The notes under the pieces: model-generated
What the model was told of the DNA's origin: nothing
Database searches by the model: none
What the model saw: the letters and a program-made list of their open reading frames with translations, nothing else
Part shown: positions 2,566 through 63,185 of the stretch, piece after piece
How the letters are laid out: each line of letters opens with the position of its first letter
Position numbering within the stretch: the first letter of the stretch is position 1
Assembly: GCA_034431095.1 (NCBI GenBank)
Contig: DAOUDM010000019.1
Location: forward strand, 13,653-77,652
Direction: 5' to 3'
Length of the DNA: 64,000 nt
Source of the DNA: Dehalococcoidales bacterium
GTDB lineage: Bacteria; Chloroflexota; Dehalococcoidia; Dehalococcoidales; W693
Program-made: the position numbers and the translations under genes

Positions 2566-2722
2566 GCGGGGAGTTTGAGGGGCGAAGCCCCTCATTAAAA
2601 AGCTTCCCCTTCCCCTTGGCAAGGGGAAGGGGATAAAGGGGATGGGGTTGATAAGAATAAGACACACTTCTATCTTTTCCCACCCGCCGCCCTTTAAGGA
2701 ATAAGATAAGGGGGTGAGGTAG
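2566..2722. repeat. intergenic hairpin-repeat cluster C1 (modules M1+M2+M6)
   Basis: Contains hairpin TGAGGGGC-GAA-GCCCCTCA (2576-2594) and a 13-bp perfect hairpin TCCCCTTCCCCTT-GGC-AAGGGGAAGGGGA (2605-2633) with tail TAAAGGGGATGGGGTTG. It then has TTCCCACCCGCCGCCCTTTAAGGAA. Near-identical copies occur at 39860-39945 and, inverted, at 50459-50545. Confidence 0.85.
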
Positions 2723-4147
2723 ATAAATCCTATAAAGTTTGGCACCGACGGCTGGCGAGCAATCATCGCCGAGGACTTCACCTTTGACAACGTTCGCCTC
2801 TGCGCCCAGGCGGTCGCCGTATATCTTAAAGACAGCGGGCTGGCACAAAGGGGGCTGGTCATCGGCTACGATACCCGCTTTGCCTCCGAAGACTTTGCCC
2901 GGGCCGCCGCCGAGGTAATCTGCGGCAACGGGATAAAGGTATACCTGTGCCCCAGAGCCGCCCCGACGCCGATGGTCAGCTATGGCGTCCTGGCAAAGCA
3001 AGCCGGCGGGGCTATCGTTATCACCGCCAGCCATAACCCGCCGCAATGGAACGGCTTCAAGTACAAGTCGGCAAACGGCACCAGCGCCCCGACGGAGGTC
3101 ATCGCCGAGCTGGAGAAGAGCATCGCCACTATTACCACTACGGGCAAGATAAGCCGAATACCGCTGGCTGAAGCTCAAAAACAAGGGCTGATAGAATACA
3201 CTGATCTGGCGCCAAGCTATGTAGAGCAGATAAAGAGCCTCATAGACCTTGACGGATTAAGAAAAGCCGGGCTCAAGATAGTGGTTGACTCTATGTACGG
3301 TGCCGGCGCTGGCTACTTTAAGATGCTTCTGGATGGAGGTGCCACAAAGCTCCTGGAGATAAACGACGAACGCAACCCTGTCTTCCCCGGCATAAAACAG
3401 CCGGAGCCGATTGCCGTCAATCTAGCTAAGTTATCAGACAGGGTCAGGCGGGAAAAGGCTGACATCGGTATCGCCACCGACGGCGATGCCGACCGTATCG
3501 GCATTATAGATGAAAAGGGCAACTTCCTGACCCAGCTCCAGGTCTTTGCCCTGCTGGCGCTATATCTTCTGGAAGTGCGTGGTGAGCGGGGCGCCATTGT
3601 TAAGACGATAACCACCACCAGCATGCTCTACCGTCTGGGCGAGATATTCAATGTGCCTGTCTATGAAACACCGGTGGGCTTTAAGTACGTCGCCCCGATA
3701 ATGCTCGCCCGGAACGCCCTCGTTGGTGGGGAGGAGAGCGGTGGCTATGGCTTCCGCGGGCATGTGCCCGAGCGCGATGCTATACTCAGCGGACTCTATT
3801 TCCTTGATCTGATGGCCAGGACGGGCAAGACGCCATCGCAGTTGCTGGACTACCTCTACAGCAGGGTAGGTCCTCACTACTACAGCCGTCTGGATATAGA
3901 GTTTGCCGAGGAGCAGAGAGAGAAAATAATCAGCCGCGTCCGGGATAGCTCTCCGGAGACGCTTGGCGGGGTTAAGGTGGCTAACAAAGACACCATCGAC
4001 GGTTTCCGCTTTACCCTGGCCGATTCCTCCTGGCTTCTCATCCGCTTTTCCGGCACCGAGCCACTGCTCCGCATCTATAGCGAAAGCAATAGCCAGTCCC
4101 GCGCCGAAAGACTGCTCGAACTGGGCCGGGAGATAGCCGGGGTCTAG
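2723..4147 (+). CDS. phosphoglucomutase/phosphomannomutase family protein (alpha-D-phosphohexomutase)
   Basis: Has the active-site TASHNP motif and the conserved N-terminus KFGTDGWR, which is encoded at 2735-2758. The frame is open from 2723. The first canonical start is ATG 2972, which would delete about 80 conserved residues. The proposed start is ATA 2723 (or 2732), downstream of AAGGGGGTGA (2708-2717). Confidence 0.8.
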   Translation: MNPIKFGTDGWRAIIAEDFTFDNVRLCAQAVAVYLKDSGLAQRGLVIGYDTRFASEDFARAAAEVICGNGIKVYLCPRAAPTPMVSYGVLAKQAGGAIVITASHNPPQWNGFKYKSANGTSAPTEVIAELEKSIATITTTGKISRIPLAEAQKQGLIEYTDLAPSYVEQIKSLIDLDGLRKAGLKIVVDSMYGAGAGYFKMLLDGGATKLLEINDERNPVFPGIKQPEPIAVNLAKLSDRVRREKADIGIATDGDADRIGIIDEKGNFLTQLQVFALLALYLLEVRGERGAIVKTITTTSMLYRLGEIFNVPVYETPVGFKYVAPIMLARNALVGGEESGGYGFRGHVPERDAILSGLYFLDLMARTGKTPSQLLDYLYSRVGPHYYSRLDIEFAEEQREKIISRVRDSSPETLGGVKVANKDTIDGFRFTLADSSWLLIRFSGTEPLLRIYSESNSQSRAERLLELGREIAGV

Positions 4148-4203
4148 CCATAGTCGGGGGCTGGCAAAGCAGAATCTGGAACTGTCGAATTCCCTGGAGC
4201 TTC

Positions 4204-4599
4204 TTACCGCTTGGTGTATTGTGGTGCTTTGCGGGCGCGCTTGAGGCCGGGCTTCTTCCTCTCTTTAGCCCGCGAGTCGCGGGTCAGCAGCCCGTCCTGG
4301 CGCAGTAGCAGCTTGAACCTCTCGTCTTCCTGTAGCAGGGCGCGGGCGATACCGTGAGCAATGGCGCCGCATTGCCCGGCTATGCCGCCGCCGGCTACCT
4401 TGACCAGGACATCGTATTTGCCTGCGGTCTCGGTCACCACCAGCGGTTTCATTATAGTCTGGAGGTGCGCAATGCGGGTGAACCGCTCATCGTAAGGCAT
4501 GCCATTTATCATGATAGTGCCGCTGCCTGGCATCAGCCTTACCTGGGCAACCGCTTCCTTGCGTTTTCCTGTCCCGTGAGAATAGGTTTTCTTTTTCAA
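4204..4599 (-). CDS. rpsI: 30S ribosomal protein S9
   Basis: 131-aa ORF ending in the typical S9 C-terminus ...RKAPQYTKR. It lies downstream of rplM. Confidence 0.95.
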   Translation of the reverse strand: MKKKTYSHGTGKRKEAVAQVRLMPGSGTIMINGMPYDERFTRIAHLQTIMKPLVVTETAGKYDVLVKVAGGGIAGQCGAIAHGIARALLQEDERFKLLLRQDGLLTRDSRAKERKKPGLKRARKAPQYTKR

Positions 4600-4623
4600 A
4601 TTACCCTCGCAAACTGCAACTGA

Positions 4624-5046
4624 TTATTTACCAGCCCCCGTCTGAGCCAGGTGGGGATGAGAGTCCCCGGCATAGACCTTGAGCTTTTTCATCATGCTGT
4701 TCCCCAGACGGTTCTTGGGCAACATACCCTTAACGGCATGCTCGATTACCCATGATGGCTTGGTCTTGAGCATCTCCTCCAGGGTGATGCTCTTGAAGCC
4801 GCCGGGATACCCGGAGTGCCGATAGTAGAGCTTCTGCTTCGCCTTGTTGCCGCTAACACGAACCTTTTTGGCGTTGACGATAACGACATAATCGCCGGTA
4901 TCCAGGTGGCGGCTGAACATCGGCTTGTTCTTGCCCATTAGCAGGCGGGCAACCTCGGTAGCCATCCGTCCCAGGACCTTATCTGTGGCGTCGATAACAT
5001 GCCACTGGTGCTCTATCTCGGAGGCTTTAACGCTATAGGTTTTCAC
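4624..5046 (-). CDS. rplM: 50S ribosomal protein L13
   Basis: 140-aa ORF with the L13 pattern (WHVIDA..VLGR.A..VA..L.GK). Confidence 0.95.
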
Positions 5047-5906
5047 TTATCTTCTTCCTCAAATGGTTTTTTGTAATTCACCTTTGTTAGGTATAAGCCG
5101 CAGGCGGGAGCCGCCGGCCCCGCCAGCCCGATTTTTTCCGCCTCCATTATACTATAAAACTCTCCGGGCGTCATCCTGCCCAGCCCAACCCTGATGAGAG
5201 CCCCGACCGTGTTGCGCACCTGGTGGGGCAGGAAGGAGTTGGCTGTTATGCTAAAGATGTTCATCTCTCCGTCCCTCGTTACTCCGGCGTGATACACCCT
5301 CCGCCGGGTACGCTTTATCTCTACCCCCAGATTGCTGGCAAACGAGGCGAGGTCGTGCTCACCGATGAGGGTCTGGCACGCCCGGTTCATAGCTTCGATG
5401 TCCAGCTCACCGGTGACCAGATGACAAAACCCATCCCAGACCGGAGAGCGGGTCGGGCTATTCAGTATGTAGTATTCGTATTCACGGCTGACGGCGTGGC
5501 TCCTGACATTGAATGAGTCGCCAGCTTTATAAGCCTCCTTGATGGCGATATCCCTGGGTAGATAGTAATTTAAGCCGTTAACAAATGTCTCCGGTGTAAG
5601 CGTTGACCTGGTCCTGAAGCTGACCACCTGCCCCCGGGCATGAACCCCGCTATCGGTGCGGCTGGCGGCCAGCAACCTGATTCTATCGCCGGTGAGCCTT
5701 TTCAGGGCTCTCTCTATCTCGCCCTGGATGGTGGGCAGTTCTGTCTGGAGCTGGAAACCGCAGTAACGGCTGCCGTTGTACTCGACGACCAGCACCATCT
5801 TGGTGATATTGCTCACCGAAGAAACGCTTTCAGGGTCTCCAGCTGGAGACCCTATCCCCTCTCTTGAGACCTTCTCTAGTCCTGTAGTTATAGAAATAGA
5901 TGCCAT
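5043..5906 (-). CDS. truA: tRNA pseudouridine(38-40) synthase
   Basis: Carries TruA motifs ([19 protein letters not shown]). The ATG at 5906 overlaps the rplQ stop as TAATG. An alternative internal start (MVLVVEY) is possible. Confidence 0.85.
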
Positions 5907-6290: not shown

Positions 6291-7292
6291 TCAAACGGAA
6301 TCTCTTTCCGGCTCTATCCCTGGCTGGGATTCACTATCTTCTACTTCGGGAGAGAGGGTCAGCCCCAATGCCTTGAGGCGTTCCTCTACCTCTTGCTTGG
6401 ACTTCTGCCCGAAGTTGCGTAGCGTCATCAGTTCCTTGTCCCCGGTGCTGATGAGCTCGCCAACAGTGGTAATACCACTGCGCCTCAGGCAATTTATAGC
6501 CCGCACCGACAGGTCTAGCTGTTCCACGGGCATATTGAATAAGTCCTTGGGTATGGAGGCACGCAGAGCCTTCTTCTCCTCCTCCGCCTGGGAAACCTGG
6601 CCGTAATCAACAAACGGGGCTAGCTGTTCTGTTAGCAGGCTGGCCGCATAGCTGATGGCACTTACCGGTGAGATTGTACCGTCGGTCCACACCTCCAGAT
6701 ACAACTGTTCGTGGCTGGTATCCTGGCCAATATGAATCGGCTCGACGGTAAAGTTGACCTTGCGTACCGGAGTAAAGATGGCATCGACCGGAATCGTCCC
6801 TACCGGCAAACTGTCACTCGATTTAGCCGGTTTGTAGCCTATCCCCAGCTCAACATCAATATCTACGTAGAGCTTTGCCTCCGGTGAATCCAGTGTCACC
6901 AGGTAAAGCTCCGGGTTAACGATTTCAACTTCAGACGATGGATTAATGTCAGCGGCGTAGACTTCTCCCTCGTTTTCTTTCTCTAGCGTCAACCTGGCCG
7001 GTCTATCGGAAAGGGGTTTCAGGCGCAGTGCTTTAAGATTGAGCAGGAACTCCAGTACGTCCTCTTTGACATGGGGGATTGGTGAAAATTCGTGTTGTAC
7101 CCCCTCGATATGAACGCGGGTTACTGCCGCCCCGGGAAGGTATTGGAGCAACACCCGCCGCATGGCATTACCCAGGGTAGTGCCGAACCCCTTTTCCAGG
7201 GGCTGGGTTAAAAAGCGCCCGTACTTATCACTGGAGTCAACACATTCAATCTTGGGAACTACTAAACCAAACAAAGATGACCTCCTTACCAA
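6291..7292 (-). CDS. rpoA: DNA-directed RNA polymerase subunit alpha
   Basis: 333-aa ORF with the alpha-NTD (PLE.GFG.TLGNA.RR.LL) and a C-terminal helix-hairpin-helix domain (LSVRA.NCL...I.TVGEL). Confidence 0.95.
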   Translation of the reverse strand: MVRRSSLFGLVVPKIECVDSSDKYGRFLTQPLEKGFGTTLGNAMRRVLLQYLPGAAVTRVHIEGVQHEFSPIPHVKEDVLEFLLNLKALRLKPLSDRPARLTLEKENEGEVYAADINPSSEVEIVNPELYLVTLDSPEAKLYVDIDVELGIGYKPAKSSDSLPVGTIPVDAIFTPVRKVNFTVEPIHIGQDTSHEQLYLEVWTDGTISPVSAISYAASLLTEQLAPFVDYGQVSQAEEEKKALRASIPKDLFNMPVEQLDLSVRAINCLRRSGITTVGELISTGDKELMTLRNFGQKSKQEVEERLKALGLTLSPEVEDSESQPGIEPERDSV

Positions 7293-15788: not shown

Positions 15789-15789
15789 C

Positions 15790-16663: not shown

Positions 16664-17114
16664 CCTGCGTTAGCTCCTTCTTTGCTGAATCACTGCCGGC
16701 TTCACTGCCCTCTCTGACTACGAACCTGGTGCCGATAGGCAGTTTGTGTGACGCCAGACGCATCGCTTCCTTGGCCAGGTCGTGGTCGACGCCGCCCAGC
16801 TCAAAAAGAATCCGCCCCCGCTTGACCACGGCTACCCAGTGGTCGGGAGCCCCCTTGCCGCTGCCCATTCGGGTCTCGGCAGCTTTCTTGGTCACCGGCT
16901 TGTCGGGGAAGATGCGTATCCATACCTTGCCGCCGCGGCGAACGTGGTGAACGATAGCCCGCCGTGCCGCCTCAATCTGTCGGCTGGTAATCCAGGCTGA
17001 ATCCAGTGCCTGCAGTCCGAACTCACCAAAGACAACAGTAGCCCCCACCTGGGCTTTACCCCGGCGGTGCCCTTTATGACTCTTGCGATACTTAACCCGT
17101 TTCGGTTGTAACAT
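16653..17114 (-). CDS. rplP: 50S ribosomal protein L16
   Basis: 153-aa ORF beginning [11 protein letters not shown]. Confidence 0.95.
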
Positions 17115-18327
17115 CCGTCTCCTCGGTCTCTATGTCTGCTGCCGGCTTTGCTTTTGTTGTCTTCGTTGCCTTCTTGGCCTTAGTATCCTTTTCCTTTGGC
17201 TCTTTAGTGGCTTTAGTCTTCGCCTTTGTCTCCTTAACCGCCGCCGGCTTCGCCTTCGCCTTTCGCTTGGCCGGTGGTTTTTCAGCCTTCTCTGGCTTTG
17301 CGGCAGGCTCCTCCGCTTTTGCCCCAGCCTCTTCAGCCACCGCCGGTTTCGCCTTAGTGGCTCTCTTTGCTTTTGGTTTAGCCGGCTCGGCTTCCACCTC
17401 GGCAACCGCCGGTTTCGCCTTAGTGGCTCTCTTTGCTTTTGGTTTAGCCGGCTTGGCTTCCGCTTCGGCAACTGCCGGCTCCGCCTTTTTCTTTGCCCTC
17501 GGTTTTACCGGCTTGGCCTCTGGCTCGGCTTCCTCTTTTACTTCTTTTACTTCGGCTTTTATCTTCTCTTCTGCCGTTATTGCCTCTTCAGCTACCGGTG
17601 GCGCCGGTATTTCTTTTGGCTCGACTGCCGCCGGTTCCGCCTCAGTAGCTATGACGGCTTCTGGTTCGGCTGTTATCTCCTCGGCTATTACCTCCTTAAG
17701 CTCCGGCAGAATATCTCCCCGGTATATCCACACCTTGACCCCGATGCGGCCCAGGGTGGTACATGCCTCGGTGAAGCCATAGTCGATATCAGCCCGCAGC
17801 GTGTGTAGCGGTACCCGCCCCCGGTGCATCGTCTGGCGGCGGGCTATCTCGACACCACCCAGCCTGCCGGAACAGCTTATCTTCATTCCCTGGGCCCCAG
17901 CCTGCATGGTGCGGAAAAGCGCCTGTTTCATAGCTCTGCGATAGGCAAGACGACGCTCAATCTGCTCGGCTACCATCCGGGCTACCAGAAAAGCGTCCAG
18001 CTCGGGCTGTCGAATCTCCTGTATATTAAGCTGAACCCTCTTTTTGATAAGGCTCTCAAGGTAGTTCTTGACTTCGTCAACTCGCTGTCCGCCCCGCCCG
18101 ATAACGATGCCGGGCCGGGCGGTGTAGATAGATACCGATACCTTATGTGCCTGACGCTCAATCTCGACCAGAGAGACACCGGCATCGACATATTTATCGC
18201 TGATGGCGTTCCTTATCTTTATGTCCTCGTGGAGGAACTCCGAGTAGTGCTTGTCGGCATACCACTTTGCCTGCCAGTCGCGTATGATGCCAATCCTGAA
18301 CCCAAACGGGTGAACCTTACGTCCCAT
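17092..18327 (-). CDS. rpsC: 30S ribosomal protein S3 with a roughly 190-aa Lys/Ala/Pro/Glu-rich C-terminal extension
   Basis: The N-terminal ~215 aa is canonical S3 (MGRKVHP.GFR). The frame then stays open through a low-complexity tail that runs to, and overlaps by 23 nt, the rplP start. Confidence 0.85.
17339..17470. repeat. 66-bp tandem duplication (2 copies, 63/66 identical) inside the S3 tail
   Basis: 17339-17404 and 17405-17470 align with 3 mismatches. Each copy encodes the 22-aa unit [23 protein letters not shown] degenerate third copy follows. Confidence 0.9.
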
Positions 18328-24909: not shown

Positions 24910-25034
24910 TTTCTCCCCCTTCTCCGGACAATTTCGAAGGATGAGCCTTAGCTCATCCTTCACAAGCCAAATGAATCGACTGGAACTTTAGCCCAATCAA
25001 TAACCATAGCTGAAGTGGCTATCAACAGCCGCTA

Positions 25035-25064
25035 AGTCTAGCACAAACAAAATATAGATGTCAA
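25035..25064 (-). promoter_or_regulatory. sigma-70-like promoter for rpsL-rpsG-fusA
   Basis: On the minus strand this reads TTGACA (25064-25059), N18, TAGACT (25040-25035), with TGC immediately 5' of the -10 (extended -10). Confidence 0.55.
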
Positions 25065-25092
25065 CAGCTATGATAGCCGATGATATTGCCGC

Positions 25093-25121
25093 TTGACAAG
25101 CGCCCCATCCCGTGCTATATT
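25093..25121 (+). promoter_or_regulatory. near-consensus sigma-70-like promoter for the aromatic amino acid operon
   Basis: TTGACA (25093-25098), N17, TATATT (25116-25121). It lies about 235 nt upstream of the DAHP synthase ATG. Confidence 0.65.
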
Positions 25122-25148
25122 TCTATAAAAGAAAGCTGTGATTTAAAG

Positions 25149-25235
25149 ATGTTAGTTACTGCCAGCCCCCGTGGAATGAATTATTACGCGTATTTTACAT
25201 TTTTCTGGCGCACCAGTGCGCCCGGGAGGTTTTGA
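25149..25235 (+). CDS. candidate aromatic-amino-acid leader peptide (28 aa; or 19 aa from ATG 25176)
   Basis: Hand translation gives MLVTASPRGMNYYAYFTFFWRTSAPGRF*. Seven of nine consecutive codons (25182-25208) are Tyr/Phe/Trp. The ORF lies between the promoter and a terminator hairpin. Its SD is weak. Confidence 0.55.
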   Translation: MLVTASPRGMNYYAYFTFFWRTSAPGRF

Positions 25236-25274
25236 TTTGAAATCCTAGAGAAGAAATCATCGTAAATCCTTAAA

Positions 25275-25301
25275 ATCCTCCCGCCGGGAGGATATTTTAT
25301 T
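25275..25301 (+). terminator. attenuator terminator in the aro leader
   Basis: ATCCTCCC-GCC-GGGAGGAT forms an 8-bp stem followed by ATTTTATT. The upstream duplicate CCGGGAGG (25222-25229, at the end of the leader ORF) can pair with the 5' arm CCTCCCG (25277-25283) as an antiterminator. Confidence 0.55.
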
Positions 25302-25357
25302 AATAAGGGAAAGCCAGGGGGCAATTTATTAAAATACAGGAATAACGGGGGGAGAAG

Positions 25358-26434
25358 ATGATTATAATGGAGAGAGACGCCACATCGGAGCAAATAAAAC
25401 ATGTTGTCAGCGAGATAAAAAAACACGGATTGAGGGCTGATATTTCCAAGGGGGAATTTAGAACGATTATCGGCCTGGTCGGAGATGAAAGCAGGATATC
25501 CTTTGCTCACCTGGCCGCTCTACCAGGAGTCAAGGAAGCCAGGATGGTGGAAACTCCCTATAAATTGATTAGCCGGGAGTACAGCGAATTGTTTGAGGGC
25601 AAAGACGAGAGCCGTATCGTTGAGGTGGGCGATGTTAGAATCGGCGGTAACGAGCCGATATTCATCGCTGGACCCTGTGCTATAGAGAGTAAAGCACAGC
25701 TATTCCGAATTGCAGAAGAGGTTAAAAGAGCCGGGGCTCATATTTTGAGGGGCGGCATCTTCAAGCCGAGGAGCTCGGTGCACTCCTTCCAGGGGCTGGG
25801 TGCCCAGGGTAATGAAGAAGCCAGGGAGGCACTGACCTGGCTGCGTGACGCCGGGCAGAGGTTCGGTATGCCGGTAGTGACCGAGGTGAGAGGGGAGTCA
25901 CAGGTTGACCTGATAGCCGAGTATGTCGACATTCTGCAGATTGGTGCTAGGAATATGTACCACCAGGATATGCTCAGCCGGGTAGCCAGGAAGGGCAAGC
26001 CGGTCCTTTTCAAGAGGCATTTTGGCGCCAGCGTAGAGGAGTTTCTCTCCTTTTCCGAGTATATTGCCGCCGAGGGCAACAAGGATATCATCCTTTGCGA
26101 GCGGGGAATAGTCCCCATCGGCAAGGGTAAGAGCTATACCAGATACACCCTTGACCTGGCGGCAGTCCCGGTCGTCCAGAAAGAGACCTATCTGCCGATA
26201 ATAGTCGACCCCAGCCACGCCGCCGGCCGCCGCGACCTCATCTTCAGCATGAGCTGTGCCGCTATCGCTATCGGTGCCAGCGGCCTGGTGATTGAGGTAC
26301 ACTATAATCCAGCCGAGGCGCTGGTTGACGCACAGCAGATGGTAACCCCCGAGGAACTGGGTAGGATTATCGCCACATGCAAGGGAATCAGCAAGATGGT
26401 GGCATCTGATAAGAAAAGGGTTAAAGCGGTATAG
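25358..26434 (+). CDS. aroF: 3-deoxy-7-phosphoheptulonate (DAHP) synthase, type I-beta with N-terminal regulatory domain
   Basis: 358-aa ORF with a KDO8PS-like core (IAGPCAIES, ILRGG.FKPR.S..SFQG). A ~90-aa N-terminal extra domain is present. A GGGGGGAG SD sits upstream. Confidence 0.9.
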   Translation: MIIMERDATSEQIKHVVSEIKKHGLRADISKGEFRTIIGLVGDESRISFAHLAALPGVKEARMVETPYKLISREYSELFEGKDESRIVEVGDVRIGGNEPIFIAGPCAIESKAQLFRIAEEVKRAGAHILRGGIFKPRSSVHSFQGLGAQGNEEAREALTWLRDAGQRFGMPVVTEVRGESQVDLIAEYVDILQIGARNMYHQDMLSRVARKGKPVLFKRHFGASVEEFLSFSEYIAAEGNKDIILCERGIVPIGKGKSYTRYTLDLAAVPVVQKETYLPIIVDPSHAAGRRDLIFSMSCAAIAIGASGLVIEVHYNPAEALVDAQQMVTPEELGRIIATCKGISKMVASDKKRVKAV

Positions 26435-34508: not shown

Positions 34509-35261
34509 CTACATCCCCGGTATTTCCATTATCTCCACCCCTTCTGGGAGCTCAAACATACTGTCCGGGATATCGACGAACTCTATATTTTTATACTCTA
34601 TTATAACCGTACCTTCGGCAGTCGTCATCTCTACCCGGATAGGGAACCCGTTTTCTTTCCATATCCACATTTTAGTCGTTGTTACCTCGGCGGTATATTC
34701 GACTACCAGGCAGACCTTACCGTCGAGTGTCTCTGGGTCTAAAATCGTCGGATTGTAGTCCGTAATAGACTGGACTTCATCCATAACGCTTTCCACCGGC
34801 TCGTATGTCATTCCCGTAGCCATGTTCTGGTCTGGATAGTAAATATATATTGTCTGAGCATCCATATCCAGCAGCGAAATTATGGTTTGACCTTCGGCGG
34901 TCACTTCCATCCGCATCTTGTTATTTTTAATCCACATCTTCGTAGTCATTGTTGGCATCCCGGGAGAGGTCATCATCACATCGTATTTCACCGAGGTTAT
35001 GCCGGCTGAACGGCCTAAAATCTCACCCAGTGTTTCACCGGGCGTAGTCGTCGTAGTCGGTGTTGTGGTCGTAGGAGTAGTAGTCGTCGGTGCGGTCGTC
35101 GTTGGCGTTGTTGTAGTCGGTGTCGTGGTCGTTGGCGTTGTTGTAGTCGTCGGTGTGGTGGTCGTTGGCGTCGTCGTTGTCGTGGCACAGTTACAGGAAG
35201 CAATCAATAACACTGCGGTTACCAATGCCGCAATCAACAGCAATGACAGCGATTTCCTCAT
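34509..35261 (-). CDS. putative lipoprotein with Thr/Pro-rich linker and LolA-like/DUF4367-like beta domain
   Basis: The start ATG 35261 has a GGAGGGAGG SD. The signal peptide ends in LLIASC (lipobox-like). About 50 aa of (P)TTTT repeats follow. The C-terminal domain (MWIKNNKMRMEV, MWIWKENGFPIRVEM) is assigned to a family only tentatively. Confidence 0.7.
   Translation of the reverse strand: MRKSLSLLLIAALVTAVLLIASCNCATTTTTPTTTTPTTTTTPTTTTPTTTTPTTTAPTTTTPTTTTPTTTTTPGETLGEILGRSAGITSVKYDVMMTSPGMPTMTTKMWIKNNKMRMEVTAEGQTIISLLDMDAQTIYIYYPDQNMATGMTYEPVESVMDEVQSITDYNPTILDPETLDGKVCLVVEYTAEVTTTKMWIWKENGFPIRVEMTTAEGTVIIEYKNIEFVDIPDSMFELPEGVEIMEIPGM
35030..35185. repeat. short tandem codon repeats encoding the Thr/Pro linker
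   Basis: GGTGTYGTNGTCGTNGG-type units are reiterated about 10 times on the plus strand. This is the complement of the (ACN)4CCN codons. Confidence 0.8.
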
Positions 35262-35332
35262 ATTTAACCTCCCTCCTTGGGCTATACCTGCTGAGTCTAG
35301 TCTCGTCATACTCGATTGTCAATACCTTTTAT

Positions 35333-35355
35333 TGGTGGTGGGGGCTGGATTCGAA
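35333..35355 (-). pseudogene. tRNA 3'-end remnant (T-loop to CCA), similar to the tRNA-fMet 3' end
   Basis: The minus strand reads TTCGAATCCAGCCCCCACCACCA, against TTCGAATCCAACCCCCGCTACCA for tRNA-fMet (20/23 identical). No 5' half is present. Confidence 0.6.
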
Positions 35356-35600: not shown

Positions 35601-35608
35601 CCAAAAAT

Positions 35609-35683
<75 letters not shown>

Positions 35684-38476: not shown

Positions 38477-39487
38477 CTAAGCTGTCCTGAAATTGAGCTC
38501 GGCACCACAGAATCTGCACTTCGAGCTTGCCAAGCCTGTTACCTCTGCCTGGTAGCCGCACCGCTTAACGGCGGTCTTGCCGCATGAGTAGCAGACGGTG
38601 CTCTCACTGCCGTGCCCCGGGACGTTGCCGGCATAGATGAATTTAAGCCCGGCTTTCTTACCGATGTCGGCGGCATGCTCTAGGGTGGATACCGGGGTCG
38701 GTGGTAAATCGGCGAGGTAGTGGTGAGGATAGAACCTGGTTACATGCCAGGGCGTCAACTCGCCCAGCTCGTCGTGTATCCATCTGGCGATGCCCTCGAG
38801 CTGTTGGTCGTCATCGTTCATGGTAGGTATGATATTGGTAACAACCTCAATGTGCATCCGCCACTTGTCTTTAGCCCTCTTGGCGACATCGAGGATACCG
38901 CGCCAGTGGCTTATCTTCGCCAGTTTACGGTAGAAGGCATCGCTGAAGCCCTTGATATCAACCCGCCAGGCGTCCAGATAAGGACCTATGGTATCCAGCG
39001 CCTCGGGGGTTATGTAGCCGTTGGTAACATAGACGGTGTACAGGTTATTCTCCTTGGCCAGCTTGGCGGAGTCCAGTGTATACTCAAACCAGACGGTAGG
39101 TTCGTTATAGGTCCAGGCTATGCCCTGGCAGTGGTACTCCTTTGCCAGCCTGACCGCCTCTTCGGGTTGAAGCTGGCGCCCTGTCTGCGGCAGGTCGACG
39201 CACGATATCTCCCAGTTCTGGCAGTCCTGGCAGTGGAAGTTGCAGCCCCAGCCGCCGATGGAGAAAGCCAGGCTACCGGGGAAGAAGTGAAACAGGGGCT
39301 TCTTTTCGATGGGGTCAACGGCTACTGATGACGCCTGAGCATAGTTCATACTGTAGAGGGCGCCGTCTTCGTTGCGGTACATTCTGCAGACGCCGCTCTT
39401 ATCCAGCCCTATCCGGCAGCGCCACTGGCAGATGTTACATTGCACCCTGGAGCCAGGGAGTTTTTCATATAGCATCGCCTGGTGCAT
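38477..39487 (-). CDS. amrS: AmmeMemoRadiSam system radical SAM enzyme
   Basis: Has an N-terminal Cys cluster (CNICQWRC) and the radical SAM motif CNFHCQDCQN. The start ATG 39487 has an AAGGGG SD 6 nt upstream. The ORF track starts at TTG 39493. Confidence 0.85.
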   Translation of the reverse strand: MHQAMLYEKLPGSRVQCNICQWRCRIGLDKSGVCRMYRNEDGALYSMNYAQASSVAVDPIEKKPLFHFFPGSLAFSIGGWGCNFHCQDCQNWEISCVDLPQTGRQLQPEEAVRLAKEYHCQGIAWTYNEPTVWFEYTLDSAKLAKENNLYTVYVTNGYITPEALDTIGPYLDAWRVDIKGFSDAFYRKLAKISHWRGILDVAKRAKDKWRMHIEVVTNIIPTMNDDDQQLEGIARWIHDELGELTPWHVTRFYPHHYLADLPPTPVSTLEHAADIGKKAGLKFIYAGNVPGHGSESTVCYSCGKTAVKRCGYQAEVTGLASSKCRFCGAELNFRTA

Positions 39488-39547
39488 AGTCAACCCCTTG
39501 AGCTAATTATATCACTCGGTTGCCGTCAATTATAGGCTTCCTTGAAG

Positions 39548-39955
39548 GTTGGCGGGTGGCTATAGATAAATAAAAGAGAGATTATTTTTCTTAGCAACCT
39601 CTCCCTGCTTAATCCCCCTCTCCTATCAATGAGAGGGGGAAATATCTATAATGGAGGGACTGCGTCCCTCCAAGCCTCCCGCTTTTATAAATGCAAAGCC
39701 TTTCTTAAGCTCTCCAATTTATCGTTCTTCCCTCTCCCTTTAATGAAGGGAGAGGGATAGAGGGTGAGGGATTTATAATAGTTCGCCCCTCTCAAACTCC
39801 CCATTTAAGTCCGTGCCATCTTAAACAACCATCCTAAGCATCCCTGTTTTTCGTTTAAGGGGGGAGTTTGAGAGGGGCCAGCCCCCTCAAATAGAACTTC
39901 CCCTTCCCCTTATTAAGGGGAAGGGGATAAAGGGGATAGGGTTGGTGAAGAAATA
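39548..39955. repeat. intergenic hairpin-repeat cluster C2 (M6-M3-M4-M5 followed by M1-M2)
   Basis: Hairpins lie at 39613-39640, 39653-39671 (GGAGGGAC-TGC-GTCCCTCC) and 39730-39756. A long-range inverted pair lies at 39781-39802 / 39861-39885. M2 with its tail spans 39897-39944. The left part is collinear with C8 and the right part with C1. Confidence 0.9.
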
Positions 39956-43810: not shown

Positions 43811-44055
43811 CAATAACCCCATCCCTCTATTTATTTTGTTAATCTCTCCCCCTTAATCCCCCTCTCTTTAATAAAGAGAGGGGGAAGAGGATTAGAGGGG
43901 CTTCGCTCCTCTAAAACACCCTGTAATACTTTAAGATTTTGTATCTCTTAGACACCCTGTAATATATTTATAGGTTTCACCTCTTTTAAACACTCCTTTT
44001 ATCCCCCCTTCCTTTGGCAAAGGAAGGGGGTCAGGGGGATGGATTTTCCCAGCTT
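43811..44055. repeat. intergenic hairpin-repeat cluster C3 between hisA and hisI
   Basis: Contains an M2-tail complement (AACCCCATCCC), an M3 hairpin (TCCCCCTCTCT-TTAATAA-AGAGAGGGGGA), a degenerate M1 (GAGGGGCTTCGCTCCTC) and an M2 variant. That variant reads CCCCCTTCCTTT-GGC-AAAGGAAGGGGG with tail TCAGGGGGATGG. Confidence 0.85.
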
Positions 44056-48289: not shown

Positions 48290-48507
48290 TTAGGGAGTCT
48301 AAGAGAGGCGAAGCCTCTCTTAGACTCCCTTCCCCCTCCCTTATCAAGGGAGGGGGATACAGGGGGAGGGTTGTATTGAAAATCAAAGGGGAGTGGATGG
48401 GGAAGGCTCTTATAATAGAACTCTTTCTTTCCCACCCAAGCCCGCCCTCGTCAGCTTCTTTAAAATATCGGGGGGGTAGCCCCACCGCCCCTTAAGGAAG
48501 GATAGGG
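48290..48507. repeat. intergenic hairpin-repeat cluster C4
   Basis: Contains a 17-bp perfect hairpin GGGAGTCTAAGAGAGGC-GAA-GCCTCTCTTAGACTCCC (48293-48329) and an M2 variant TCCCCCTCCCTT-ATCA-AAGGGAGGGGGA with tail TACAGGGGGAGGGTTG. M6 complements (TTTCCCACCC, CCCCACCGCCCCTTAAGGAAGG) follow, and the cluster ends in GGATAGGGTTG. Confidence 0.85.
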
Positions 48508-50437: not shown

Positions 50438-50454
50438 GGCTTAGTGTTTTAGTC

Positions 50455-50548
50455 TTAACAACCCTATCCCCTGTATCCCCTTCCCCTTACAAGGGGAAGG
50501 GGAATATTTTTATAAGAGGGGCTTCGCCCCTCTCGGACTCTCGATTTA
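50455..50548. repeat. intergenic hairpin-repeat cluster C5 (M2+M1 in inverted orientation)
   Basis: CAACCCTATCCCCTGTATCCCCTTCCCCTT-ACA-AGGGGAAGGGGAA is followed by GAGGGGC-TTC-GCCCCTC. This is the reverse-orientation counterpart of C1. Confidence 0.9.
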
Positions 50549-50636: not shown

Positions 50637-51119
50637 ATGTCACCGGTTATACGCATTGATGACGAGGTAATGAAGGCTCTAAAGGAGAGAGCAGTAAAAT
50701 TAGGGTTAGTTTTTAGTACTCCAAATGAGGTACTAAGGGCCTTATTTGAGTTGGATAAGCGAAATAATATATGTAGTGATAAGTTCGTAGATATACAAAT
50801 AAAAAATATATATACTCCACAACGGTGGGCTCTCATCCCTATACCTAGAAGGAAAAGGCGGTTTTTCCCTGGTTTTAAGCTACCATTCTTATTAGAAACA
50901 GACTTAGGTGATATTAGAACGCATGTTACATCTGCTCTAAGAGGAACACGTATAGGTGACCCAGATGGTGGGGCATATATACAGACTAAACTTCGCAGGT
51001 GGTTTGACGAACATGAATCGCAACTGGTAGATGGAGTCACTCTTCGCTTCGAAGCTCTAGAACAGGGGAAACGATATAAGCTTTCCATAGTAGGCGGCGA
51101 GTCAAAGAAGGGTGTTTAA
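50637..51119 (+). CDS. AT-rich hypothetical protein (possible RHH-like N-terminus plus beta-barrel DNA-binding-like domain)
   Basis: ATG 50637 has a GGAGG SD 5 nt upstream. The protein begins MSPVIRIDDEVMKALKERAVKLG. The remainder (FFPGFKLPFLLETDLGDI, LRRWF, GVTLRFE) only loosely resembles B3/AbrB-type barrels. Confidence 0.5.
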   Translation: MSPVIRIDDEVMKALKERAVKLGLVFSTPNEVLRALFELDKRNNICSDKFVDIQIKNIYTPQRWALIPIPRRKRRFFPGFKLPFLLETDLGDIRTHVTSALRGTRIGDPDGGAYIQTKLRRWFDEHESQLVDGVTLRFEALEQGKRYKLSIVGGESKKGV

Positions 51120-51205
51120 GGGGGGGTCAACCCCCTCTTTCTATGTTTCCCCTTTTACGATATTATAACTGGTATCGTTTTCGGGGGTCAGGGGGATGGA
51201 TTCAA
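51120..51205. repeat. intergenic repeat cluster C6
   Basis: A GGGGG-TCAA-CCCCC hairpin sits directly after the stop codon. An ACGATA-N10-TATCGT hairpin follows, then the M2-variant tail CGGGGGTCAGGGGGATGGATT, as in C3. Confidence 0.7.
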
Positions 51206-53879: not shown

Positions 53880-53945
53880 TGGTTGAGGACTACCTCACCC
53901 CCTGTGTCCCCCTCTCCTAACAAGGGAAGGGGTAGGGGATAGGTT
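53880..53945. repeat. intergenic repeat cluster C7 (degenerate M2/M3)
   Basis: CACCCCCTGTGTCCCCCTCTCC-TAACA-AGGGAAGGGGTAGGGGATAGGTTG. The hairpin is imperfect and carries a G-tract tail. Confidence 0.7.
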
Positions 53946-53970
53946 GTTTACAACCAAGTTAGAACGTTAT

Positions 53971-58174: not shown

Positions 58175-58194
58175 CTACCTCACCCCTGTAACAT

Positions 58195-58512
58195 TCTCTT
58201 GGAGGGTGGTGGGTGGGTATAGATACTAAAAGAAAAATTACTATTCATAACAACCTCTCCCCCTTAATCCCCCTCTCCTTGTAAGGAGAGGGGGAGGGTT
58301 AATATGGAGGGACTGCGTCCCTCCAAACCTCCCTCTATTATGTTTTATATGGGTTATATTCCCCTAAACCTCACTCTATTGTGTTTATATGGGCTGTATC
58401 CCCCAAACTTCCCTTTCGAGCTTTGCCCCTCTTAAACATTCCTTTTATTCCATTTATTCCCTCTCCCTTTATTACAAGGGAGAGGGATAGAGGGAGAGGG
58501 ATTTATATAATT
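58195..58512. repeat. intergenic hairpin-repeat cluster C8 (M6-M3-M4-spacer-M5) between nadB and nadC
   Basis: Holds GGGTGGTGGGTGGGTATAGA, an 11-bp hairpin at 58268-58295, GGAGGGAC-TGC-GTCCCTCC at 58306-58324, and an 11-bp hairpin at 58459-58486 with tail ATAGAGGGAGAGGGATTTATA. It is collinear with the left part of C2. Confidence 0.9.
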
Positions 58513-61749: not shown

Positions 61750-61771
61750 AAAAACTAACCTATATTTTTAG

Positions 61772-61963
61772 CTATAAGAACCAAAGTTGGAATTGTTGAT
61801 AAGTCTCTTTATCGTGAAAATCCATGTCTTTGTCATCTTCCCAGACTAATTCAGTAAAGTTGTCATAATCTTCACCGTATCCTTTGCACATGACGAATAT
61901 TCGCCTAAAAGGATTGAGTTTTAAAATAACTCTTGCTAAAAACGGATTAATTGTTGTTGACAT
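61772..61963 (-). CDS. small AT-rich hypothetical ORF downstream of the DpnI-like gene
   Basis: A 63-aa ORF from ATG 61963, which lies 4 nt after the upstream stop, or 74 aa from TTG 61996. No SD is evident and I recognise no family. Confidence 0.35.
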   Translation of the reverse strand: MSTTINPFLARVILKLNPFRRIFVMCKGYGEDYDNFTELVWEDDKDMDFHDKETYQQFQLWFL

Positions 61964-61967
61964 GCTT

Positions 61968-62738
61968 TTATGCAAGGCGGTAAAGTCCTCGTTCAATAAA
62001 CTCCAGATAGCCTTTATCTCTTAAAATCTGTAACTGTTGGCGGATTTTATCTTTAATGTGCTTGTTATCTGGATGTTTTTTGCTTAATACGTTTTCGAAA
62101 GCGTAGACTTCATCAAGGGAAAATTCTTCATTCCCAAGTTCTTCAACACATTTCATGACGTCCAAAAGCCAGCCTTTTGCGTATATCTCCTTTTCTTCTC
62201 TTAAGAAAAGAGTCTTTTGCCATGTTGCAAGAACTTTATCCTTAGGCTCAACTTGGCTGTTTTTAATAAAGAATATTTTCCCTGTTTGAGGAATGCTTTT
62301 CAGTATAATATTACATCCGACCCAACCAGCACGTCGTGCAGTTTGTGCTAACGCTTTTCTTTTTTCTATTATCTCAGGAATAAAGAAGTGTTTGGGTATA
62401 ACGAAAAGATTTAAAACCATAAGATTTTTTAAGTCGTAATTTAACAGAAAGAAGTTTGGATTATTGCTATCCAGCAATCTTTCAATCATGGTACTGTATG
62501 CGCCATTGACTATTTTATTTCCAAATTTATCCCTCTTGCTTTTTAATTCATAAACCTCCTTACAGTTAGAACAGAAAAAATCGGAGACAGGTTTATTGTT
62601 CGCATATTTATTGATGTCAATATTCCCGCAGTTAGGACAATAAACATGATTGCCAACCCAACTCTCAGTTAGAACTCTAATTCTTTGAGATGGATTTTTA
62701 TAATCCTGGGCTAAATCTATTTGAAAGGATAGATTCAT
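61968..62738 (-). CDS. DpnI-like (Dam-replacing family) methyl-directed type IIM restriction endonuclease
   Basis: 256-aa AT-rich ORF. It closely parallels remembered DpnI features: SQRIRVLTE.W....YCPNCG, PV.DF.C..C.E.YELKS, NNPNFF.L.Y, ARRAGW.GCNI, and a C-terminal winged helix with HIK.KIRQQLQILRDK. Confidence 0.85.
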   Translation of the reverse strand: MNLSFQIDLAQDYKNPSQRIRVLTESWVGNHVYCPNCGNIDINKYANNKPVSDFFCSNCKEVYELKSKRDKFGNKIVNGAYSTMIERLLDSNNPNFFLLNYDLKNLMVLNLFVIPKHFFIPEIIEKRKALAQTARRAGWVGCNIILKSIPQTGKIFFIKNSQVEPKDKVLATWQKTLFLREEKEIYAKGWLLDVMKCVEELGNEEFSLDEVYAFENVLSKKHPDNKHIKDKIRQQLQILRDKGYLEFIERGLYRLA

Positions 62739-62802
62739 ATTTCCAGATAGAGCTTTAAGTGTGGTACTTCATAGTAAGGAGTTTTCATTTTTTATCTTTC
62801 TC

Positions 62803-62894
62803 TGGCGGAGGGGGAGGGATTCGAACCCTCGACCCCGGTTTCCCGGGGTAAGCGCTTAGCAGGCGCCCGCACTAGGCCACTATGCGACCCCTCC
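62803..62894 (-). tRNA. tRNA-Ser (anticodon GCT), CCA encoded
   Basis: The reverse complement is GGAGGGGTCGCATAGTGGCCTAGTGCGGGCGCCTGCTAAGCGCTTACCCCGGGAAACCGGGGTCGAGGGTTCGAATCCCTCCCCCTCCGCCA. It forms a class II cloverleaf with a long variable arm and anticodon loop CTGCTAA. Confidence 0.92.
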
Positions 62895-62974
62895 TCGCCT
62901 TGTAGTATCTCAGAGCCCTGGTTGACACCTTTAATATATCATATCAACCTTGATAGCTCAAAGATATTTTAAGT

Positions 62975-63185
62975 CTTTAACAACCTTTCCCCTTAGCCCT
63001 CTTCCTTAAGGGTGGTGGGTGGGAATAGACAGTAAGAGAGGGATTTATATTTGCTACCAACCTCACCCCCTTAATCCCCCTCTCCTTATAAGGAGAGGGG
63101 GAGATATAAGAAAGAGGGGGCATAAGCCCCCTCTAAACACCCCCTTCCAGGTGCTGGTTAGGGGAGAGAGATAAAAAGAAATAGG
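62975..63185. repeat. intergenic hairpin-repeat cluster C9
   Basis: Contains M6 (GGGTGGTGGGTGGGAATAGA), an M5 tail fragment (AGAGGGATTTATA) and an M3 11-bp hairpin at 63075-63102. An M1-type hairpin AGAGGGGGC-ATAA-GCCCCCTCT lies at 63113-63134. Confidence 0.85.

Follow-up and report, generated by a model that had tools for sequence, protein, structure and literature searches.

In terms of sequence, a class II intrastrand DNA triplex of the antiparallel purine motif is defined by a hairpin built from a pyrimidine tract (Y) and a purine tract (R1) and followed by a second purine tract (R2), in the order Y-loop-R1-loop-R2, with G opposite G and A or T opposite A (Hoyne 2000; Holder 2015, PMC4666352). 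Hairpins with such a mirror purine tract are known in Escherichia coli, Synechocystis, Microcystis and others, intrastrand triplex motifs have been catalogued across thousands of genomes, and the ITxF rule describes them as three consecutive tracts on the same strand with stems of 6-15 nt, loops of 1-6 nt, the triplets C-G-G, T-A-A or T-A-T and, where the stem has 7 nt or more, no more than one mismatched triplet (PMC4666352). TM-ECO, the E. coli motif, forms a triplex in vitro by circular dichroism and nuclear magnetic resonance (NMR), is always intergenic without strand bias, lacks promoter and terminator activity and occupies unusually rearranged loci; from the in vitro triplex and the elevated locus variability, Holder et al. 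proposed that its folding perturbs replication or repair, with local indels and duplications as a result (PMC4666352). H-DNA-forming mirror repeats have likewise been associated with polymerase stalling and instability (PMC4666352). Here we describe nine intergenic clusters in a 64,000-nt stretch of a Dehalococcoidales bacterium (assembly GCA_034431095.1, contig DAOUDM010000019.1, positions 13,653 to 77,652 of the forward strand; the window in the following), which are copies, fragments and nested copies of one non-coding intergenic DNA repeat family. With a probability of roughly 60%, we take these to be potential-intrastrand-triplex repeats of the BoxC/PIT/TM kind, predicted to fold on the G-rich strand and to be structure-prone and unstable. 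A previous description of the window, made from the letters alone and referred to as the sequence-only reading, had not recognised the repeats as a described family. This holds for the Dehalococcoidales family, as neither it nor its clade is mentioned in PMC4666352 and literature searches returned no description of it, but not for the kind, which is that of the BoxC/PIT/TM motif (PMC4666352).

The sequence-only reading had delimited clusters at 2566-2722, 39548-39955, 43811-44055, 48290-48507, 50455-50548, 51120-51205, 53880-53945, 58195-58512 and 62975-63185, and all nine, with the module sequences quoted for them, were found there; the recurrent, strictly intergenic repeat family made of few modules is real. 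Perfect hairpins with stems of 10 bp or more and loops of 2-8 nt number 14 in the window, against a mean of 0.47 in 30 dinucleotide-preserving shuffles. The 5' arm consists entirely of C/T in 11 of them (shuffle mean 0) and entirely of A/G in none (shuffle mean 0.03), and all 11 pyrimidine-first hairpins fall within the nine clusters. As 'pyrimidine arm first' is identical when read on either strand, this is a genuine property of the hairpins and not an effect of orientation. A repeat search of the window tied the clusters together by families of direct and inverted repeats: 2577-2665 and 50444-50532, for example, are 81% complementary across 89 nt (inverted family I1), and 58248-58311 and 63055-63118 are 86% identical. 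The ribosomal and aro core at 4-34 kb is without comparable repeats, as had been stated but for one relic, since triad scan and inspection yielded a single 7-nt match of chance level (9613) and the intergenic region 24960-25360 holds an ordinary hairpin only.

Other parts of the first description had to be revised. Stems had been given as 10-17 bp, but those of the pyrimidine-first hairpins measure 10-13 bp and those of the purine-first modules M1 and M4 8-9 bp, with one purine-first hairpin reaching 18 bp (48292-48330). A C/T 5' arm and an A/G 3' arm are characteristic of M2, M3 and M5, but not of M1 and M4, in which the purine arm comes first and a G-C clamp is central. The six modules proposed reduce to two three-tract motifs plus the minor G/T-rich module M6: M2, M3 and M5 are a single motif that varies in the sequence of its arms, the counterpart of this motif in class I is represented by M1 and M4, and M6 alone is separate. 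What had been overlooked is the third tract that flanks every pyrimidine-first hairpin. The clusters are indeed mosaic, and those at 39548-39780 and 58195-58510 are collinear (M6-M3-M4-spacer-M5), but the order of modules is not free, as an M1-type and an M2- or M3-type module form a fixed bipartite unit.

In the window, the purine arm R1 of every pyrimidine-first hairpin is followed, at a distance of 1-5 nt, by a purine-rich R2 tract. This tract mirrors R1 and does not repeat it directly, with A or T allowed opposite A and G opposite G, and among the window copies with asymmetric arms the mirror match exceeded the direct match in six out of six. Departures from the exact mirror are mostly A to T, as in GGGGAAGGGG with GGGGATGGGG, GGGAGAGGG with GGGTGAGGG and GGAGAGGGGG with GGGGGTGAGG; TT typically stands opposite the terminal AA of R1, which explains the conserved '...GGTT' ending. 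In the purine-first hairpins the order is R2'-R1'-loop-Y' (class I), as exemplified by GGGGAG-TTT-GAGGGG-C GAA G-CCCCTC (2568-2593) and by AGGGAGG-TTT-GGAGGGA-C GCA G-TCCCTCC on the minus strand of 58306-58334. The ITxF rule was re-implemented with loops widened to 1-8 nt. It returned 29, 13 and 10 window triads with stems of at least 6, 8 and 10 nt, respectively, whereas 50 dinucleotide shuffles gave means of 0.86, 0.06 and 0.00; triads with stems of at least 10 nt were thus clearly over-represented, with ten in the window and none in any of the 50 shuffles. These ten strong triads have stems of 13-14 nt, at most one mismatched triplet and loops of 2-6 and 1-3 nt, and so comply with the ITxF definition, while scrambled genomes were reported to hold no triad stems longer than 11 nt (PMC4666352).

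The same rule governs the copies outside the window, which were counted in related contigs. A rule-obeying third tract accompanied 130 of 146 hairpins fetched, among the matches listed, by a pattern that specified the hairpin only. When 214 pyrimidine/purine hairpins were chosen blind to their flanks, 81% had a third tract at 90% or more triplet compatibility, with the mirror match better than the direct one in 154 and the reverse in six; the third tract scored 0.90 against the hairpin's own arm and 0.74 against arms of other types on the same flank. Among 27 asymmetric arm types the mirror was favoured in 22 and the direct repeat in none, with five ties, and arm types of both polarities are present (e.g., GGAGAGGGGG with GGGGGTGAGG, and GGGGAGAGGG with GGGTGAGGGG). 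About half of the third-tract bases opposite A are T. As T in this position is a mismatch in a pyrimidine-motif triplex on the C-rich strand, a purine motif on the G-rich DNA strand fits the pattern; RNA is said to form triplexes of the pyrimidine motif only (PMC4666352). When 169 copies were aligned, conservation of the third tract matched that of the stems, unlike conservation of the loops. We know of no common mutational process that makes mirror repeats, and the symmetry therefore suggests selection on, or copying through, a folded structure.

Both three-tract motifs are combined on one G-rich strand in a basic unit of about 105 nt. Its first part, R2'-R1'-loop-Y' (M1, M4), is G-C-clamped and usually has a d(GNA) triloop; its second part is Y-loop-R1-(1-3 nt)-R2 (M2, M3, M5), in which R1 is the Watson-Crick partner of Y. 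The alignment of copies yielded the consensus aagGGGAGTttaAGAGGGGC-gaA-GCCCCTCTt.aaa...ct-TCCCCCTCtCCTT-.t.-AAGGaGAGGGGGAT-aa-AGGGGgTGaGGTt-.atAAA. Among 182 strong triads, the purine-first hairpin was located 7-13 nt upstream on the same strand in 121 (mode 10 nt) and downstream in four. The C(GNA)G loop of this companion hairpin was found 55 times on the G-rich strand, compared with 16 times on the opposite one, and the sequence GCGNAGC is a DNA mini-hairpin described as extraordinarily stable (PMC13037366). Five such units are found in the window (2568-2649, 39860-39943, 48292-48372, 50460-50548 and 58252-58334), and a sixth has a non-GNA loop (63059-63144). Folded as single-stranded DNA, the window units gave two hairpins with R2 left unpaired (z = -4.5 to -10.3). 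Between the two ends of the unit, AAGGGGAG... and ...GGTGAGGTT, the relation is that of a mirror or direct repeat and not an inverted one, and hence they are not the terminal inverted repeats of a miniature inverted-repeat transposable element (MITE). The separate module M6, CCTTAAAGGG-YGG-YGGGTGGG-AATAGATA, is rarer, with seven intergenic copies across all sequence examined.

The closest matches of the EF-G and NadB proteins of the window belong to uncultured Dehalococcoidia or Dehalococcoidales (Chloroflexota) and are 91-92% identical. A scan of one genome per species, covering 185,579 species, with the hairpin-only pattern TCCCCYTYYCCTT-N2-6-AAGGRRARGGGGA matched at least 120 contigs. Among the matches listed, about 105 of 120 contigs were labelled Dehalococcoid-something or Chloroflexota and 14 of 120 loci bore other taxonomic labels. 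The family is accordingly widespread in Dehalococcoidales metagenome-assembled genomes (MAGs) and not confined to this window, a possibility under which the repeats would have been unremarkable. Spread outside Chloroflexota is not claimed here, as some of the other labels are doubtful. Five loci labelled 'delta proteobacterium MFD04408.bin.1.96' (L016, L028, L058, L061 and L086) are suspect, since L016 shares synteny and 73-79% nucleotide identity with the window near 48 kb, and four 'viral' contigs from IMG/VR (L001-L004) carry the bipartite unit and are syntenic with each other; the viral and other-phylum labels are probably wrong rather than evidence of transfer. As a control for density, contigs were chosen via NadC instead of the repeat. 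These contained only six triads in 374 kb, without exception in closer relatives, namely three in contigs derived from the nadB search (L125-L127) and three in metagenome loci of 60-63% NadC identity (L133, L134), indicating that the family is clade-specific and abundant within its clade. A metagenome NadC scan for strain-level variants of the nadB-nadC region returned relatives of at most 71% identity. Taken together, the repeat family is specific to a clade of uncultured Dehalococcoidales (Chloroflexota).

Within this clade the repeats turn over at orthologous sites. The gene order miaB-yajC-nadB-nadC-...-lytB-trpS is kept in four relatives with 79-92% NadB identity, in which the repeat-free miaB-yajC and yajC-nadB intergenic regions are nearly identical. 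By contrast, every repeat-bearing orthologous site compared differed in module content. The nadB-nadC spacer measures 341 nt in the window and 74-159 nt with different modules in the relatives, sharing only M6 and an R2-like tract, and the unit at 50460-50548 is missing from the relative L125, whose spacer at this position is 30 nt. Further cases are a clean indel of a 78-nt unit (L071 versus L122), an M2-type unit nested within an M3-type triad (L026 versus L025) and a 16-nt hairpin inserted between R1 and R2 (L002). In L099, at about 6900-7240, some 80 nt comprising the last codons of a gene and a purine-first hairpin occur three times in tandem, and once or not at all in the syntenic L085. 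The 3' half of a purine-first hairpin is also where two tandem arrays in the window begin (58318-58414, 41 nt x 2.4, and 43908-43985, 36 nt x 2.2), which accounts for the 'half modules' among the repeats listed earlier. No convincing target-site duplication was seen at the indel junctions of the sites compared; in the nadB-nadC spacer, GATTA borders the difference between the window and L125 at either end, as would result from a duplication of 5 nt or from a deletion at microhomology.

To relate the copies to genes, these were called by a self-trained codon-usage caller, whose output for L125 and L128 agreed with the public gene calls. Of 182 triads, 171 (94%) are intergenic, in sequence that is 86% coding. 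Copies between tandem, divergent and convergent genes numbered 90, 35 and 15, and the corresponding shares of intergenic length are 63, 25 and 12%; divergent regions thus harbour 35 of 140 copies (25%), equal to their share of length, and a REP-like downstream preference was not observed. In tandem regions, the G-rich strand was the sense strand in 57 cases and the antisense strand in 33, a weak bias. R2 ends pointed to a gene start in 109 copies and to a gene end in 59, and copies abut gene ends as closely as gene starts. The family accordingly shows the TM-ECO/BoxC trait of being always intergenic without strand or positional bias (171/182; context tracks intergenic length), and its distribution over gene contexts is not that of terminators, repetitive extragenic palindromes (REPs) or promoter elements.

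The unit consensus has no U/T tract after either hairpin, and a loose terminator scan found T-rich tails on three hairpins (50476, 51118 and 63134); a terminator role was not retained, the regional excess being marginal (27 versus 18.6 +/- 3.9). Rfam, applied at the gathering threshold to the whole window and at E<=1 to 39.4-64 kb, a search that had been suggested with the sequence-only reading, returned two tRNAs only and no family that matches the repeats. A sub-threshold match to the Plastid-psbl-rps4 3' untranslated region (UTR) at 62806-62859 (plus strand; 38.6 bits versus a gathering threshold of 68), antisense to tRNA-Ser, is almost certainly due to chance or an antisense-tRNA artefact. 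R2-like tracts are positioned as ribosome-binding site (RBS) of nadC (58175-58190) and of a PGM/PMM gene (2709-2722), and in the related loci R2 lies 5-15 nt before a start codon in 14 of 168 copies. As a general function, ribosome binding was rejected, since distances show no peak beyond that due to packing and gene ends are abutted just as closely.

Two observations were made at these sites. The Pfam PGM_PMM_I match of the PGM/PMM gene extends from residue 4 of a frame that opens at 2723, directly after a TAG stop, and has no ATG, GTG or TTG before 2972 (window 2720-2975). The codon at 2723 is ATA, preceded by GGGGGTGAGGTAG in the same RBS context as the nadC ATG, and is either used as an AUA start or due to an error in which ATA has replaced ATG. 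Upstream of nadC, a possible small open reading frame (ORF; MNSNFSFSIYTHPPPSKRMLQG followed by a stop) begins right after the R2 tract, runs through M6 (58175-58250, minus strand) and has a stop that overlaps the nadC RBS, and '(I/F)(Y/F)(S/T)HPPP' peptides are readable in L126, L127, L082 and upstream of the PGM gene (sites: L125 3448-3540; L126 3053-3211; L127 11546-11619; window 2650-2722). The small ORF was not adopted as a gene, because its frame is broken in the closest relative, L125, with the nucleotides conserved, which renders coding doubtful.

We propose the following course of events. The G-rich strand would become transiently single-stranded during replication, transcription or repair, upon which each motif may fold into its hairpin and the adjacent purine tract may then occupy the major groove of the hairpin. 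Such triplex folds would impede polymerases and promote slippage and illegitimate recombination, so that units could be gained, lost, inserted into one another and tandemly duplicated. Units would persist only between genes, as largely selfish or neutral structure-prone DNA, with the R2 tract occasionally co-opted as a ribosome-binding site, and would not act as general terminators, promoters or RNA elements. Both the mechanism of instability and the mode of copy spread are what we infer, and the repeats are probably structure-prone, unstable DNA rather than a regulator.

Several points weigh against this interpretation. Triplex folding is deduced from a sequence rule, and the covariation rests on 27-31 independent arm types, many of them single-copy, as the copies are related by descent. 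The sense bias of 57:33 and the excess of R2 ends towards gene starts (109 versus 59) hint at an interaction with expression. The T in GGGGGTGAGG makes R2 nearly complementary to what we take to be the usual 3' tail of 16S rRNA, and Shine-Dalgarno-like selection could therefore explain part of the pattern. In addition, R1 and R2 of the M2 and M5 types together also satisfy the canonical G-quadruplex pattern, and the presence or absence of whole units and their nesting fit active transposition as well as passive instability.

The last of these points leads to a live alternative, namely that the repeats are mobile elements similar to MITEs or to REPs and bacterial interspersed mosaic elements (BIMEs), whose hairpins serve as sites for a single-strand DNA transposase acting in trans that copies the unit of about 105 nt to new intergenic sites. 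The enzyme could be a REP-associated tyrosine transposase (RAYT), an IS200/IS605 TnpA-like protein or another one, and the high copy number, the restriction to one clade, the BIME-like mosaic clusters, the gain, loss and nesting of whole units and the location of stable GNA-loop hairpins on one strand, as expected of single-stranded substrates, would all agree with it. A transposase is nevertheless absent from the window, as had been stated: the 30 proteins scanned there (nearly all genes of 35-64 kb) comprise ordinary housekeeping proteins and one DpnI-like enzyme, and tblastn with IS608 TnpA, a query verified against PDB 2a6m, gave no match to an IS200/IS605 TnpA-like coding sequence in the window and 209 loci (1.17 Mb; 1.24 Mb total), which are contig fragments searched with low sensitivity for divergent RAYTs. 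Moreover, the unit has an overall mirror and not inverted symmetry without terminal inverted repeats, indel junctions show no clear target-site duplication, copies are not enriched at gene 3' ends as REPs are, and the mirror rule of the third tract is left unexplained. We therefore regard mobilisation by such an enzyme as unlikely, and, as it concerns the spread of copies, it would be compatible with a triplex-type structure. A role in transcripts, in which the hairpins would terminate transcription, stabilise 3' ends or be sites of processing, functions that have been suggested for certain REPs, is quite improbable. Strong hairpins that form whichever way they are oriented, T-rich tails on a few of them and the modest sense bias would suit such a role, but a quarter of the copies lies between divergent genes in line with the length of these regions, convergent and tandem 3' positions are not enriched, no U-tract follows either hairpin in the consensus, and no Rfam family matches. 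The special stability of GNA triloops is one of DNA. The frequent T opposite A rules out a pyrimidine-motif RNA triplex, while RNA is reported not to adopt the purine-motif type, and the E. coli counterparts are devoid of terminator or promoter activity (PMC4666352).

The resemblance of R1 and R2 to Shine-Dalgarno sequences (AAGGAG..., AAGGGGGTGA), and of the pyrimidine arm to an anti-Shine-Dalgarno sequence (...CTCCTT), could alternatively mean that the repeats donate, sequester or titrate ribosome-binding sites. The tracts before nadC and the PGM/PMM gene, the 14 of 168 copies with R2 at the appropriate distance from a start codon and the orientation of R2 ends towards gene starts are in favour of this, yet most copies are more than 20 nt from any start, and the 35% that face a gene end often do so within 4-14 nt, so that the close spacing reflects tight packing and not Shine-Dalgarno spacing. 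As M2-type third tracts (AGGGGATAGGGTT) are also poor Shine-Dalgarno matches and a mirror rule across many arm types would not be predicted, such mimicry appears very improbable. Still more remote is folding of the four G-runs of R1 and R2, and of M6, into G-quadruplex or i-motif DNA or RNA with a role in regulation or replication pausing. The tracts of M2, M5 and 48346-48370 do fit G3+ N1-7 repeated four times, M6 (GGGTGGTGGGTGGG) is quadruplex-like, and TM-ECO itself could in principle form a quadruplex (Holder et al., PMC4666352). A quadruplex, however, needs neither mirror symmetry, although the mirror was favoured over the direct repeat by 22 to 0 across arm types, nor a complementary pyrimidine arm, which in these repeats is a perfect complement; four G3 runs are missing from M3 (GGAGAGGGGG...GGGGGTGAGG), the type that occurs most often, and for TM-ECO, NMR favoured the triplex over the quadruplex (PMC4666352).

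The potential-intrastrand-triplex reading, which we prefer, bears on the question of whether bacterial cells form DNA triplexes that are of consequence to them. The motif of E. coli varies too little for a test by covariation, whereas the many Dehalococcoidales arm variants, in which three tracts change together, speak for structural selection or structure-dependent copying and provide ready-made sequences for biophysical tests. A bolder and rather doubtful extension is that the repeats form a class of self-propagating single-strand DNA elements, with two purine-motif triplexes and a d(GNA) mini-hairpin on one strand, which spread through Dehalococcoidales genomes without a known transposase and whose triplexes are kept by three-way covariation across dozens of arm variants. 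If this were true, they would constitute the first comparative-genomic evidence of selection on intrastrand DNA triplexes in living cells and a natural sequence series for testing such folds at replication forks. On the practical side, the repeats explain why intergenic regions of Dehalococcoidales MAGs are long and difficult to align, and likely also where their assemblies break; several hairpin-scan matches among those listed lie at contig ends. They further mark hot spots of indels and tandem duplication, and they can mislead annotation, as the same unit is carried by four viral-labelled contigs and several other-phylum bins.

The individual copies in the window are arranged as follows. The first cluster opens on the plus strand with the purine-first M1 GGGGAG-TTT-GAGGGGC-GAA-GCCCCTC (2568-2594; R2'-R1'-loop-Y', class I, stem of 6 nt, no mismatch), which has a GCGAAGC mini-hairpin core, and continues with the class II triad M2, TTCCCCTTCCCCTT-GGC-AAGGGGAAGGGGAT-A-AAGGGGATGGGGTT (2604-2649; stems of 14 nt, one mismatch), and with an M6-like C-rich module, TATCTTTTCCCACCCGCCGCCCTTTAAGG, and a solo R2-like tract, TAAGGGGGTGAGGTAG, the RBS of the PGM/PMM gene starting at 2723 (2671-2722). 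The second begins with the M6 module GGTTGGCGGGTGGCTATAGATAA (39548-39572, plus), adjoining the start of a radical-SAM gene (38477-39493, minus). It is followed by two minus-strand elements, a partly decayed class II triad of the M3 type (39596-39640; hairpin TCCCCCTCTC-N8-GAGAGGGGGA, third tract CCTCTCCCTG in plus-strand reading) and the purine-first M4 GGAGGGAC-GCA-GTCCCTCC on the G-rich strand with its mirror tract (39652-39683; class I, stem of 7 nt). Further along are the class II triad M5 TTCCCTCTCCCTT-TAATG-AAGGGAGAGGGAT-A-GAGGGTGAGGGAT (39728-39772, plus), half a purine-first motif consisting of 3' arm and tail, GCCCCTCTCAAACTCCCC (39782-39803; repeat family D8), and a complete bipartite unit (39860-39943, plus) composed of a class I M1 (39860-39888), a 10-nt spacer and an M2 triad (39899-39943), 82% identical to 2586-2650 (family D11). 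In the third cluster, an M3-like class II triad with 14-nt stems (43841-43886, minus) is followed by the purine-first hairpin AGAGGAGC-GAA-GCCCCTCT on the minus strand with the tandem array that begins in its 3' half (43895-43985), and by the class II triad CCCCCCTTCCTTT-GGC-AAAGGAAGGGGGT-C-AGGGGGATGGATT (44003-44045, plus).

The bipartite unit of the fourth cluster (48292-48372, plus; fold z = -8.7) is spacerless, the 18-bp purine-first hairpin with its GAA loop (48292-48330) passing directly into a class II triad (48330-48372); by eye, degenerate M6-like C-rich tracts, CCCACCCAAGCCCGCCC and CCCCACCGCCCCTTAAGG...GGATAGGGTTGG, were seen beyond it (48421-48507). The fifth is a minus-strand unit (50460-50548) with a purine-first hairpin (50515-50533, GAA loop) and an M2 triad (50460-50503), the I1 partner of 2577-2665 at 81%. 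A decayed plus-strand copy (51118-51205) retains the hairpin AAGGGGGGG-TCAA-CCCCCTCTT and a triad that ends in GGGGGTCAGGGGGATGGATT and has an insert of about 28 nt in its first loop, and a four-tract variant, CCTCACCCCC-TGTG-TCCCCCTCTCCT-AAC-AAGGGAAGGGG-TA-GGGGATAGGTTG (53893-53950, plus), has third tracts on both sides of an imperfect stem. About 25 nt upstream of the nadC start, the M6 module GGAGGGTGGTGGGTGGGTATAGATA (58200-58226, plus) is kept at its site in L125, L126 and L127. Next to it lies a minus-strand unit (58252-58334) of an M3 triad (58252-58296, stems of 14 nt) and a purine-first M4 (58305-58334, GCA loop), from whose 3' half the 41-nt x 2.4 array extends, followed by a half-motif at 58422-58447 (58318-58447; D8), and the cluster closes with the class II triad M5 TTCCCTCTCCCTT-TATTAC-AAGGGAGAGGGAT-A-GAGGGAGAGGGAT (58457-58502, plus). 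The last cluster contains pyrimidine tracts, AACAACCTTTCCCCTTAGCCCTCTTCCTT, that abut the M6 module AAGGGTGGTGGGTGGGAATAGACA and an M5-like tail, AGAGGGATTTATA (62979-63048, plus), and a minus-strand unit (63059-63144) made up of an M3 triad (63059-63103) and the purine-first hairpin AGAGGGGGC-N4-GCCCCCTCT with its tail (63113-63144).

Some further features of the window were noted. A DpnI-like methyl-directed restriction endonuclease (Pfam DpnI and DpnI_C; 61968-62738, minus) lies between tRNA-Ser (62803-62894) and miaB; as the tRNA is directly upstream of miaB in L125, L127 and L128, the gene is an insertion next to a tRNA gene. Ribosomal protein S3 (rpsC, 17092-18327, minus) has 411 residues, with Pfam domains covering residues 37-201 only and a C-terminal extension of about 200 residues encoded by 60-66-nt tandem repeats (17229-17529; families D4 and D6). 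A LolA-like/DUF4412 protein (gene at 34509-35309, minus) has, close to its N-terminus, a low-complexity stretch rich in Asp, Tyr and Asn, which is encoded by eight overlapping repeats spaced by 9 or 15 nt (35041-35196). A 25-nt copy of the tRNA-Met 3' end (35331-35355 versus 35607-35631; 88% identical), about 276 nt beyond tRNA-Met (35609-35683, minus), resembles what is left of an attachment site after integration or excision.

Compared with known systems, the Dehalococcoidales repeats share with REPs and BIMEs that they are short, high-copy, intergenic and palindromic and form mosaic clusters of variable order and orientation that vary between related genomes. The analogy drawn in the sequence-only reading thus applies to the mosaic clustering, but not to the position, as a preference for gene 3' ends was not observed and no RAYT-like gene was found in the sequences searched. 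REPs are imperfect palindromes of mixed sequence, defined without a third-tract rule and concentrated after gene 3' ends, whereas the repeats described here have pyrimidine and purine arms and track intergenic length. The pneumococcal BOX and neisserial Correia elements are likewise small, modular, non-coding intergenic repeats that can supply expression signals, as the R2 tract occasionally does in serving as RBS. These elements have terminal inverted repeats or defined boxA/boxC ends, and Correia elements have target-site duplications, while the Dehalococcoidales units have no inverted termini and no evident duplication. With H-DNA mirror repeats they have in common the mirror symmetry of purine tracts and the rules of Hoogsteen and reverse-Hoogsteen pairing. 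H-DNA, however, arises from a mirror repeat in duplex DNA under supercoiling, whereas the units described here carry an additional inverted copy as Watson-Crick partner, so that folding needs only that one strand to be single-stranded.

The closest resemblance is to BoxC/PIT/TM-ECO, which have the same succession of C-rich arm, loop, G-rich arm, short loop (often TTA or TAA) and mirror G-rich tract of a class II purine motif. As in TM-ECO, T is tolerated in the third tract, copies are intergenic without strong strand bias or association with gene function, paired configurations occur at times, and loci differ between close relatives; the M5 type uses the same 9-mers, CCCTCTCCC/GGGAGAGGG/GGGTGAGGG, but with loops of 9 and 5 nt when parsed as TM-ECO. 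The strict TM-ECO consensus, CCCTCNCCC-N3-6-GGGNGAGGG-N3-GGGNGAGGG, had no match in the window and matched three Dehalococcoidia-related or metagenome loci (L087, L105 and L134). Homology of M5 to E. coli was considered and dismissed, as blastn against 5,426 E. coli genomes gave a weak match only (E about 1), which is not evidence of homology. In this match, which lies in the phnD-phnE spacer of an O121 strain (L209, 401-503), CCCCTCTCCCTT-GA-GGGAGAGGG is followed by GGGAGA repeated in tandem some 16 times, so that an E. coli pyrimidine/purine hairpin bears an expanded purine tract. In contrast to TM-ECO, with its 9-nt stems and one near-invariant consensus, the Dehalococcoidales triads have stems of 13-14 nt and many arm variants and pile up in mosaic clusters of 200-400 nt; E. 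coli pairs are on opposite strands, whereas the triad is here usually coupled on the same strand to a class I GNA-loop hairpin in a unit of about 105 nt. Given the different host phylum, common descent with BoxC is unlikely and convergence more plausible. The Dehalococcoidales family, with its longer stems, its many arm variants and its unit of class I and class II motifs, would be separate from BoxC and probably convergent with it.

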